DNA from: Heptranchias perlo
Lineage: Eukaryota
Assembly: GCF_035084215.1 (NCBI RefSeq)
Contig: NC_090344.1
Coordinates: 48,856,001-48,920,000 of the forward strand
Direction of reading: 5' to 3'
DNA length: 64,000 nt
Part shown: one piece after another, positions 22,601 through 25,600 of the stretch
How the letters are laid out: each line of letters starts with the position of its first letter
Position numbering within the stretch: position 1 is the stretch's first letter
Notes under the pieces: generated by a model
What the model saw: only the letters and a program-made list of their open reading frames with translations
Database searches by the model: none
Told to the model about the DNA's origin: nothing
Translations under genes and position numbers: made by a program

Positions 22601-25600
22601 CCGCTCACGGCTCTCCCACCAGACAGATGCAGGTCTGCAAATGGTCTGAAGACAGAAGAGGCCCTTCTGATAATTCTAAAACTTTCCTTTATGGGGCCAG
22701 AAGAACCCGACCTCCTCCGGACCCCACAAGGAAAGTTGCAACCACCATCCTTCCCCTGCCCTCCCGCCGCCATTGAGACCCACCCGGCACCCCCTCTTCA
22801 CCACTTACCTGGAAGCCAAGGGCCGCCCTGCACCCTCTTTATGTCTTTTGTAAACAATTTTACAACACCAAGTTATAGTCCAGCAATTTTATTTTAAATT
22901 CACAAGCTTTCGGAGATTTTCTCCTTCCTCAGGCAAATGAAAAACATTTGCCTGAGGAAGGAGAAAATCTCCGAAAGCTTGTGAATTTAAAATAAAATTG
23001 CTGGACTATAACTTGGTGTTGTAAAATTGTTTACAATTGTCAACCCCAGTCCATCACCGGCATCTCCACATCATCCCTCTTTATGTCGGTTTTTATAGGT
23101 GGCATTTAATTGGGGCCCAACGGTTAAAATCGCCGCGACCTCCTGCTGCCTCTGTCGGGTGGAAAAACAACTCGCCGGAGCTGTTTTCCCTCGGAAATTC
23201 GCTCCGAGTTAAAATCCACCAAACACGTACATTCTCCAAACCAATTACGAACTTCATCTATTAAGTCCAAAAATTTCAACTAACTGTCTTAGGTATGTAT
23301 GGATTATAAAACTAGGGGGTTCAATGAACATCATCTGCAAGAACAATGTTGGATTAGGAAACTCCAAAAACCTTGTCAGTATCAACATTTGTGGTGAAAT
23401 CCCACTATGCAATGTCAATGTGACAAATTCTTAAATGTGTTCCTAACCTGGGTTACAATGATGAACAAAGGAATTTAACTTGAACGTGTTACGTGCAGAG
23501 ACACTAAAATTGCAGTGTGATTTCATCCCAATAACGATTTGGGGGACGGGACTGTGTGCTCGGTAAGACTCTGACCTTTCAGCTCTGAGTTCTGAGTTCA
23601 AATTCGGTCAAGACATGGAATGAAAGTTTCCTTTCTCGGATAAGTCGTACAGGTTCAGTGTGAAATGACTTTGCACAGCCGCAAACCAGCATAAAACTGC
23701 TCCTGACTGGGTACTAATTTGACTCCCCACATCCTCTCCTGAAGCTATTAACTCCAATAACTTTCCCAAATGCTCATTCTTCCAGTGTCGGTCTAGATAG
23801 TGAGTGACTATTCCCCCATGGAGGGTATCACTGCCAAGCACAATCCTTTCTTCACCCCAAGTCCAGACACAGGTACATTTCAGCAGGAGTCAATGGATCA
23901 AAACACAAGAACATAAGAAATAGGAGCAGGTGTAGGCCAATCAGCCCCTCGAGCCTGCAGAAAAGTGGGAACCCTGGCTGCTTTTGCTTCTCCTCAGCCA
24001 AAGGGGTGCTCAGGACACTTAACGTATCTCTACCATCACCAGACACAGGCTGAGCATCAAACCTGGGATCTTCCAGGTCTTCCAGGCTCAGCTAAAATCT
24101 GGCTAAGCTAGTTGTATCATCAGGGACAGCCTTCACTGAATTTTTAAGCAAGATGACAGCTCACCCTTTACATAAATAGTAGTTTCCATAAGGAAAACAT
24201 GCATCAAGGTGTTGCTACAGAAACACCAGCAAAGTGTCACAGTAGAGGATCCTCGAGGTTCCTCAAAGTCACAGATAAAAGCTGTTCACATGTAACTGAT
24301 GATCCATTTCTCTTGCCACAGGGCACTGTCTGTTTTTCCTTTGAAAATCAGCCGTCTTCCAACGATCTGAAAGCATTGATCAGCGAGGAATCCCTATCCA
24401 GTTTTTGCAGCCCAGAGAGTGCATCAGCAGCAGGTAAGTGGCTGCCTCTCACTGGTTCTTGTTTTTCAATCTGACCACTTTTCAGAGTCCCTGATCTCCC
24501 CTGCTGCCTCTAATCATTTCTCTCTGCTCTCCGCATACAAAAGAGATCGTCCAGAACACACACAACACCCCAGCGTCTGGAGCACTTCTGTTCTTTGGCA
24601 GTCAGGATCCTTTGGTGAGAGAGATTCTCAGGGAACGTGATGGTGGTGCCTGCCAAAACTTGGGTGCCTCTGTTGATCCGCAGGAAACCTGCCAGATGCG
24701 GAATTCAGAATACACAGAACTGTTACTCTGCGGTTGCCAGGAAACAAACCAGCCCCCTGTTATGGCTAACAGTGAGACATGGAGCAGAAATATGGACAGT
24801 CACATGGCTTTGTACTTGGTACAGGAGCAAGATACAGCAGAATGCACTATGACAGGAAACAAAGTCCCAATCAACTGCACATGTGATAATGACGATAAAA
24901 AAGTAGAAGAACTGGAATTGAATGAATCGTTTCTAGAACAGGAAATAGAGGAAAATGAAGAAATCACAGAAGTCCTAGCAGAAAAGTAAGGAAACTCAAA
25001 ATATAGCTAACTTATTTTCGGATATTGATGTAAACCTCATCTGCCATTCTGCCCATAAAGGCACTCAGCAATGTTGGATAATTACTTCTTAATATGAAAG
25101 CATACGGGATCCTGGGCTTTATAAATAGAGGCATAAAGTACAAAAGTATGGAAGTCATGATGAACCTTTATAAAACACTGGTTCGGCCACAACTGGAGTA
25201 TTGTGTCCAGTTCTGGGACCGCACTTTAGGAAAGATGTGAAGGTCTTAGAGAGGGTGCAGAAGAGATTTACTAGAAAGATTCCAGGGATGAGGGACTTTA
25301 ATTACGTGGATAGACTGGAGAAGTTGGGGTTGTTCTTGGAGCAGAGACGGTTGCGAGGAGATTTGATAGAGATGTTCAAAATCATGAAGGGTCTAGACAG
25401 AGTAGATAGAGAGAAACTGTTCCCATTGGCGGAAGGATCAAGGACCAGAGGACATAGATTTCAGGTGACATGAGGAAAAACTTTTTTACACAGCGAGTGG
25501 TTAGGATCTGGAATGCACTGCCCGAGGTGGTGGTGGAGGCAGATTTAATCATGGCCTTCAAAAGGGAACTGGATAAGTACTTGAAAGGAAAAAATTTGCA

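Follow-up and report, generated by a model that had tools for sequence, protein, structure and literature searches.

A palindromic unit of 229 bases that carries a hammerhead ribozyme motif on each strand lies in an intron of the shark Heptranchias perlo, within the 64,000-nucleotide stretch of DNA that was analysed (the window). This arrangement raises the question of what kind of element the palindrome represents and how its two complementary arms were made. The preliminary description of the locus left a choice between an extreme Penelope truncation and a non-autonomous, retrozyme-like mini-element. The first of these proposals stands, since the palindrome is almost certainly a truncated Penelope-like element (PLE), and the second is not supported. 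The formation of such palindromes was addressed by comparing the locus with its sister insertions in the same genome.

Architecture of the palindromic insertion

The insertion sits in an intron of approximately 16.6 kb that belongs to a gene on the + strand, the flanking exons of which end at position 7664 and start at about 24319. The assignment of the host gene to PSD4 agrees with the exon sequence, which is 100% identical to a PSD4-like protein of Heptranchias perlo (a PSD-family gene). Together with its flanking repeats the palindrome spans 22833-23087. Two arms of 92 nt (22848-22939 and 22945-23036) are 100% complementary and are separated by a 5 nt spacer, and the unit is completed by a one-sided tail of 38 nt (23037-23074, + strand). 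A direct repeat of 13 nt forms the left (22833-22845, + strand) and right (23075-23087, + strand) target-site duplications (TSDs). The perfect arms, AAAAA centre, tail and TSD that had been reported from the sequence are all present.

In the numbering of the parent element, in which 0 is the A of the ATG start codon, the right arm (+ strand) corresponds to the pLTR leader from -128 to -37, and the left, tailless arm (- strand) is an inverted copy of the same segment. This left arm may represent cDNA primed at an upstream RT start site. The tail corresponds to parent -36 to +1; it closes with the AT of the parent ATG, and no further ORF sequence is present. Specifically, positions 22942-23074 match parent -131 to +1 at 133 of 133 nt, which upholds the proposal that the insertion is recent. 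Two bases at 22846-22847 are unlike both the target and the parent unit with which they were compared, and are likely untemplated additions at the tailless priming site. Three of the A residues in the centre (22940-22944, + strand) correspond to parent -131 to -129, the predicted transcription start (TATA+30), and the other two are extra. The sequence AATAAA at 22991-22996 (+ strand), a possible poly(A) signal of the parent transcript, is present in 65 of 68 arms, although this conservation adds little to the case for such a role because the whole segment is conserved. Judged by its sequence, the 229-base stub is the 5′ leader of its parent PLE and nothing else.

The sole other copy of an arm found in the window is a solo tailless arm of a sister subfamily in the same intron (18214-18337, - strand; parent -131 to -35), flanked by an 11-nt TSD. 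This intron also contains LINE-type RT and endonuclease fragments at 10888-13215 (- strand), 13742-15580 (+ strand) and 17775-18032 (+ strand), among which is one open frame of 776 codons, and an imperfect tandem repeat with a period of about 30 bp at 8235-9311. Elsewhere in the window there are two imperfect palindromes (30818-30921 and 31504-31621; 73-75% identity) with no match to the PLE arm, and a long tandem array (50267-64000; about 95% self-identity, offsets in multiples of about 40 bp) that reaches the window end.

The parent is a young autonomous PLE

An autonomous parent encoding an RT and a GIY-YIG domain had been anticipated, and a parent with a 902-aa ORF indeed resides in the same genome. 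The ORF is intact in five retrieved loci, which encode four distinct proteins, and it carries the motifs PADKGG at 294 (DKG), YIDD at 532 and YIGET at 805. RVT_1 is matched with an E value of 3e-10. The C-terminal GIY-YIG match (E 4e-4, 21.2 bits) falls just under the Pfam cut-off of 22.6, and at E<=0.01 a match to this domain is obtained for 6 of the 12 members that were aligned. The protein has a CX4CX2C linker at 753-761 and two Cys between VVY and YIG. By the linker criteria in the portions of PMC8557442 covered, these motifs would place the parent with Neptune or Nematis, the Neptune-type linker also being shared with Nematis. The closest named protein relatives are from sharks (80-96% identity), followed by those of turtles, an echinoderm and ticks (34-44%), and a PDB search gave one match only (E 0.84) and thus no solved relative.

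In three loci (L106, L107 and L108) the hammerhead word repeats every ~3,081 bp, reflecting parent units arranged head to tail. This corresponds to the partial-tandem pLTR organisation of an EN+ PLE. A TATAAAT sequence is located at -161 of the parent. In four runs of one sample, pieces were found on 30 of 30 parent bins; these pieces are assembled contigs whose RNA type is guessed and whose ends are unreadable. We conclude that the parent is a young autonomous EN+ PLE and that the stub is its derivative. A piece of PLE ORF (96% identical, 29% of protein length) also occurs in P0016, a shark protein annotated as an epsin-2 isoform, where it reflects either exonisation or a gene-model chimera.

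Copies of the stub across the genome

A genome-wide copy number, one of the checks proposed at the outset, can be given from exact words. In the 3.25-Gb genome a 28-nt tail word occurs 46,373 times and the 41-nt hammerhead word of this subfamily 6,902 times, and there are 425 subfamily palindromes with a centre of <=20 nt, some of which are segmental duplicates. A genome search yielded 551 candidates; 40 of these were scored, and their full-length matches all show 97-100% identity. Each of the 30 closest copies occupies a site of its own with distinct flanks, and among them there are 17 different centres, one of which is common to 11 copies. These numbers rule out an assembly fold-back as the origin of the palindrome. 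Arm lengths are continuous from ~110 to 3,000 nt. The mapped loci showed no short tandem arrays of the unit, and the tandems there consist of 3-kb parent units alone. At 15.34-15.37 Mb of contig C1 an identical mini-palindrome is present three times with a spacing of ~15.4 kb (L092, L093 and L094), which is likely a later segmental triplication.

The hammerhead motif and its competing hairpin

The + strand motif (22946-22986) begins with a stem I of 6 bp, two of them G-U (22946-22951/22981-22986), which encloses the core CUGAGGA (22952-22958), an extra A (22959), a 5-bp stem II (22960-22972) and GAAA (22973-22976). A palindromic AGCU follows, and cleavage is predicted after U22980. The parts of the mirror motif run along the - strand from 22938 to 22898, antisense to the host gene. 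Thus, the proposal of a minimal type I hammerhead motif on each strand holds in every part. The stub combines the CUGANGA/GAAA core with an extra base at 9/10.1, G10.1-C11.1, a palindromic stem III and stems I and II, and it shows all four diagnostic features of PLE minimal hammerheads that are set out in the portions of PMC4209133 covered. A search of Rfam returned no hammerhead model at E<=10, probably because stem III is missing. The top Rfam models are long-hairpin miRNAs, all under their gathering scores; these reflect the long hairpin, and miRNA identity was rejected.

Among the 69 sampled arms that retain the GAAAGCTT box, 56 have an exact hammerhead core, and the motif is maintained across subfamilies. 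Among 53 distinct variants, 48 have G-C as stem II pair 1, and for the inner pairs of stem I, 48 have A-U and 47 have C-G. Wobble swaps and changes in the loop make up most of the differences, and pairs altered on both sides are few.

Folding of the whole unit gives -155.9 kcal/mol (z -28), a value that none of 200 shuffles equals, compared with -7.9 kcal/mol for ribozyme stems I and II alone. The suggestion that a 92-bp hairpin competes with the ribozyme fold is therefore well founded, and the hairpin would win. As far as can be read from the sequence, self-cleavage at this locus is unlikely because the motif needs a same-sense partner; the local copies are on opposite strands, and the remaining copy in the window has - strand orientation. 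For PLE hammerheads, cleavage as dimers has reportedly been described by Lunse et al. The hammerhead would be a passenger of the copied leader, locked in a 92-bp hairpin within the host pre-mRNA.

A second sample of 81 unbiased tail arms, mapped on the same single contig as the sister insertions described below, bears on the RNA that was copied. The predicted cleavage site is crossed by 69 of these arms, which indicates that uncleaved RNA is the usual template and that cleaved RNA is not the main one. The 5′ ends of the remaining 12 arms, which are without the GAAAGCTT box, are dispersed between about -45 and -97 and do not clearly accumulate at -92, as a footprint of ribozyme cleavage would require.

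End points and arms of sister insertions

To characterise sister insertions, the first 100 tail-bearing subfamily matches on contig C1 were mapped on the natural parent stretch. This sample contained 93 terminal arms, from which four rows were dropped (three multi-unit and one listed twice) to leave 89, with one of three segmental duplicates used. An adjacent inverted copy is present in 69 of the 89 insertions, and each of these 69 is flanked by a TSD of 11-15 nt (12 nt in 34 and 13 nt in 23). The 20 single-arm rows have a repeat of 9-13 nt in seven cases and one of chance size (<=6 nt) in 13. All 89 tail arms end between -4 and +10, and 65 of 69 tailless arms end between -41 and -28. An inverted 5′-truncated copy with a one-sided tail, here an offset of ~36 nt, is the structure expected of an EN+ PLE. 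A rare exception among the 69 inverted insertions (L095:1385-1654) has a tail on both arms, with ends at +4 and -8. Furthermore, solo tailless arms exist, and five of ten are flanked by a repeat of >=10 nt, two of these in low-complexity flanks.

The arms were compared in the 35 long inverted cases, defined by any arm that extends past -170. The tailless arm is longer by >20 nt in 16 of these, by up to 2,272 nt, and the tail arm is the longer in seven. A tailless arm longer than its partner is not a fold-back copy of the tail arm. Because the tail, in turn, could not have been copied from the tailless arm, both arms appear to have been started on RNA, one at each target end. In the other 12 cases the arms are equal within 20 nt, a number that none of 10,000 shuffles reaches (mean 1.07). 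These symmetric cases suggest that fold-back or coupled synthesis also contributes. Lineage variants are common to both arms in 38 of 40 informative insertions, and private variants are shared in eight. This concordance points to a single RNA as the template, with the caveat that later gene conversion between arms could also produce it. It rules out priming on two RNAs as the rule; the discordant insertions are L185 and L186.

The 69 junctions comprise 40 with microhomology, 25 with fillers and four that are blunt. The commonest short junction occurs in both polarities, in 6 of 29 and 4 of 29 cases, respectively. Among 33 long insertions, none shows a strand-transfer scar at -131. In two loci (L107:4466-4771 and L175:4156-4254) an arm exceeds one full unit and stops at -39, beside the second RT start site. 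These two over-unit arms might reflect a circular template.

The truncation hotspot tracks the TATA box

Of the 89 tail arms, 35 are short and end between -145 and -110, as do 29 of the 69 inverted arms. Genome-wide, the numbers of arms of this subfamily that reach -128, -131 and -133 are 6,902, 6,325 and 5,231, such that 1,094 arms are lost over the 2 nt from -131 to -133, corresponding to TATA+28 to +30. The spacing between a TATA box and the transcription start is roughly 30 nt, and start sites conform to an initiator consensus. In a sister subfamily with a longer spacer, the TATA box is located 6 nt further from the hammerhead. The short arms of this long-spacer subfamily cluster 14-19 nt before the core, which is TATA+27 to +32. 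Its genome-wide counts are 7,036, 5,036 and 2,027 at 9, 14 and 20 nt before the core; the largest loss coincides with an initiator-like TCATTT located 15-20 nt before the core, and 28% of arms are already lost 10-14 nt before it. A local tally of 22:5 versus 3:19 (Fisher p 2e-6) is based on hand-entered counts of arms that are not independent, and includes some rows that are long copies on the wrong reference, with long references chosen by TATA pattern.

The hotspot thus tracks the TATA box more than it tracks the ribozyme, a pattern suggestive of run-off where the mRNA begins. Immediately ahead of the predicted start, at -146 to -130 (L106 parent), this subfamily has a 6-bp hairpin that could equally halt RT there, and the centre of this hairpin at -139 coincides with the second frequent palindrome junction. 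In contrast, the long-spacer subfamily folds in this region at only -2.3 to -4.3 kcal/mol and has no comparable hairpin. In other PLEs, the portions of the literature covered describe a TATA-less promoter inside the pLTR of Drosophila Penelope (PMC2377424) and a putative TATA with Inr in a rotifer PLE (PMC3846280).

A model for palindrome formation

We propose that the palindrome is probably a dead, extremely 5′-truncated insertion in which both cut ends copied one RNA to its predicted 5′ end. The element protein would make a staggered target cut about 12-13 nt wide. One 3′-OH would prime RT at the start codon and the other ~36 nt upstream, which would create the one-sided tail. With an mRNA that starts ~30 nt past the pLTR TATA, only ~131 and 95 nt would be left to copy, and both cDNAs would stop at the end of the template. 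These run-off cDNAs would resemble a strong-stop product, sometimes with extra bases added, and their two 3′ ends would be joined head-to-head through 2-8-nt microhomology, fold-back or small fillers. Longer copies would require a template that continues upstream, as in tandem read-through, a circle or strand transfer.

The main competing account, which we consider rather unlikely, is that a single cDNA folds back, or primes itself on an antisense template, and that the short length results from RT stalling at the hairpin or ribozyme fold rather than from the mRNA 5′ end. Such self-priming has been proposed for the same structures in the portions of PMC3846280 covered, and it would readily explain the 12 symmetric long insertions of 35, the haplotypes common to both arms, the microhomology at 40 of 69 junctions and the position of a hotspot at the centre of a natural hairpin (-139). 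It does not explain the 16 of 35 long insertions in which the tailless arm is longer, the occurrence of the commonest short junction in both polarities (six and four of 29) or the solo tailless arms with TSDs, and stalling is at odds with a hotspot that shifts with the TATA box in a subfamily without a comparable hairpin. Fold-back may nevertheless serve as the joining step in a subset of insertions.

A further alternative is a non-autonomous ~230-nt palindromic unit, like a retrozyme or MITE, that borrows the PLE protein. The 425 near-identical short palindromes and the single centre common to 11 of the 30 closest copies are what such a unit would produce, and retrozymes are argued to derive from PLE ends in the portions of a preprint covered (bioRxiv 10.64898/2026.07.22.740005). 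Yet the stub matches the parent leader exactly and has nothing peculiar to itself, the centres vary (17 in 30 copies), and arm lengths form a continuum to 3 kb without short tandem arrays in the mapped loci; by comparison, retrozymes are defined in the portions of PMC7229834 covered by same-sense tandem repeats and circular RNAs. The retrozyme-like proposal is therefore largely refuted and we regard it as very improbable. Least credible of all is recruitment of a functional cis-acting ribozyme or switch by the PSD4-like gene, despite an intact sense-strand motif located ~1.2 kb upstream of an exon. Transcription passes through the left arm first, and this arm would sequester the motif, for which the window offers no same-sense partner. 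In the portions of PMC4209133 covered, metazoan minimal hammerheads cleave poorly as dimers in vitro and do not cleave as monomers. Furthermore, the zero divergence from the parent indicates that the insertion is very young.

Two-end priming with run-off permits a more general and distinctly tentative reading, namely that PLEs replicate in a two-ended, LTR-like manner. A dimeric protein would cut with a 12-13-nt stagger, and both ends would prime one RNA near its 5′ end, making double strong-stop cDNA, and hence ~230-bp palindromes, the default product. Full-length copies would be made only if RT continued past the 5′ end of the mRNA, on a circle, on a tandem transcript or on a 3′ copy that is terminally redundant (from TATA+30 to a poly(A) site that follows AATAAA). 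If this is true, the terminal redundancy puts two hammerheads on one RNA, with the dimer partner in cis, and tens of thousands of shark insertions constitute a fossil map of PLE transcription starts.

Comparison with known systems

The locus itself is ordinary, being one intronic copy among hundreds, and its value is as a handle on PLE inverted repeats and tails, the formation of which is described as "still undefined" in the portions of PMC8557442 covered. An inverted arm, a tail and a minimal hammerhead are already published as PLE anatomy; what is new is the population data on how the palindrome forms. In the portions covered, canonical EN+ PLEs have an inverted 5′-truncated copy and a tail of 30-40 bp (Craig et al. 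2021, PMC8557442; Arkhipova et al. 2013, PMC3846280). The shark stubs differ in that they lack ORF sequence beyond AT, have a very high copy number and show a sharp length mode. The self-priming offered for the inversion in those portions of PMC3846280 does not fit, as the sole route, the longer tailless arms observed here. Similarly, opposite-strand pairs of metazoan PLE minimal hammerheads, 100-700 bp apart, are attributed to truncated PLEs in the covered portions of Cervera and de la Pena (2014, PMC4209133). The stub shares with those hammerheads the core boxes, the extra nucleotide at 9/10.1, G10.1-C11.1, the palindromic 15.2-16.2 and the missing stem III loop, and appears to differ in its predicted 5-bp stem II and 6-bp stem I with two G-U pairs.

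The anole Poseidon protein PAc cuts and extends both strands and is a predicted dimer, and it uses two internal RT start sites a tail apart on an uncleaved RNA template (Frangieh et al. 2024, PMC11167929, portions covered). The shark PLE would resemble PAc in cutting and extending both strands, in copying uncleaved RNA and in having two internal start sites a tail apart, which are here deduced from insertion ends. In contrast, PAc belongs to the Penelope/Poseidon clade, without a CX2-5CxxC linker, whereas the shark parent carries CX4CX2C, and the start sites lie at or before the ATG in the shark PLE and 111-118 nt inside the ORF in PAc, according to the same portions of that work. Inverted insertions and a run-off hotspot are not treated in those portions of PMC11167929. 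Metazoan non-LTR retrozymes are like the stub in being short, protein-free and PLE-related with a type I hammerhead, in the portions covered of PMC7229834 and bioRxiv 10.64898/2026.07.22.740005. Retrozymes are described there as same-sense tandems expressed as circles; the stub is head-to-head and would be rebuilt at each insertion. Its membership in the retrozyme class was rejected, as neither same-sense short tandems in the mapped loci nor a fixed-unit sequence of its own was found. In the openly accessible literature searched, we found neither a two-end-priming or start-site run-off model for PLE palindromes nor a report of the shark PLE family itself.

The genome supplies thousands of very young insertions with sharp ends, along with intact tandem parents, from a second PLE clade, and these parents could be tested in the assay built for the anole element. 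The many perfect intronic hairpins would also be substrates for A-to-I editing or small-RNA processing. Two other retroelement processes offer a useful comparison. In LINE-1 twin priming, the second target end primes on the same RNA and inverts a different upstream part at variable sites, and in retroviruses internal priming near the RNA 5′ end yields strong-stop DNA, a short run-off cDNA. Unlike those of LINE-1 twin priming, the primers of the shark PLE start 36 nt apart and copy the same sequence.
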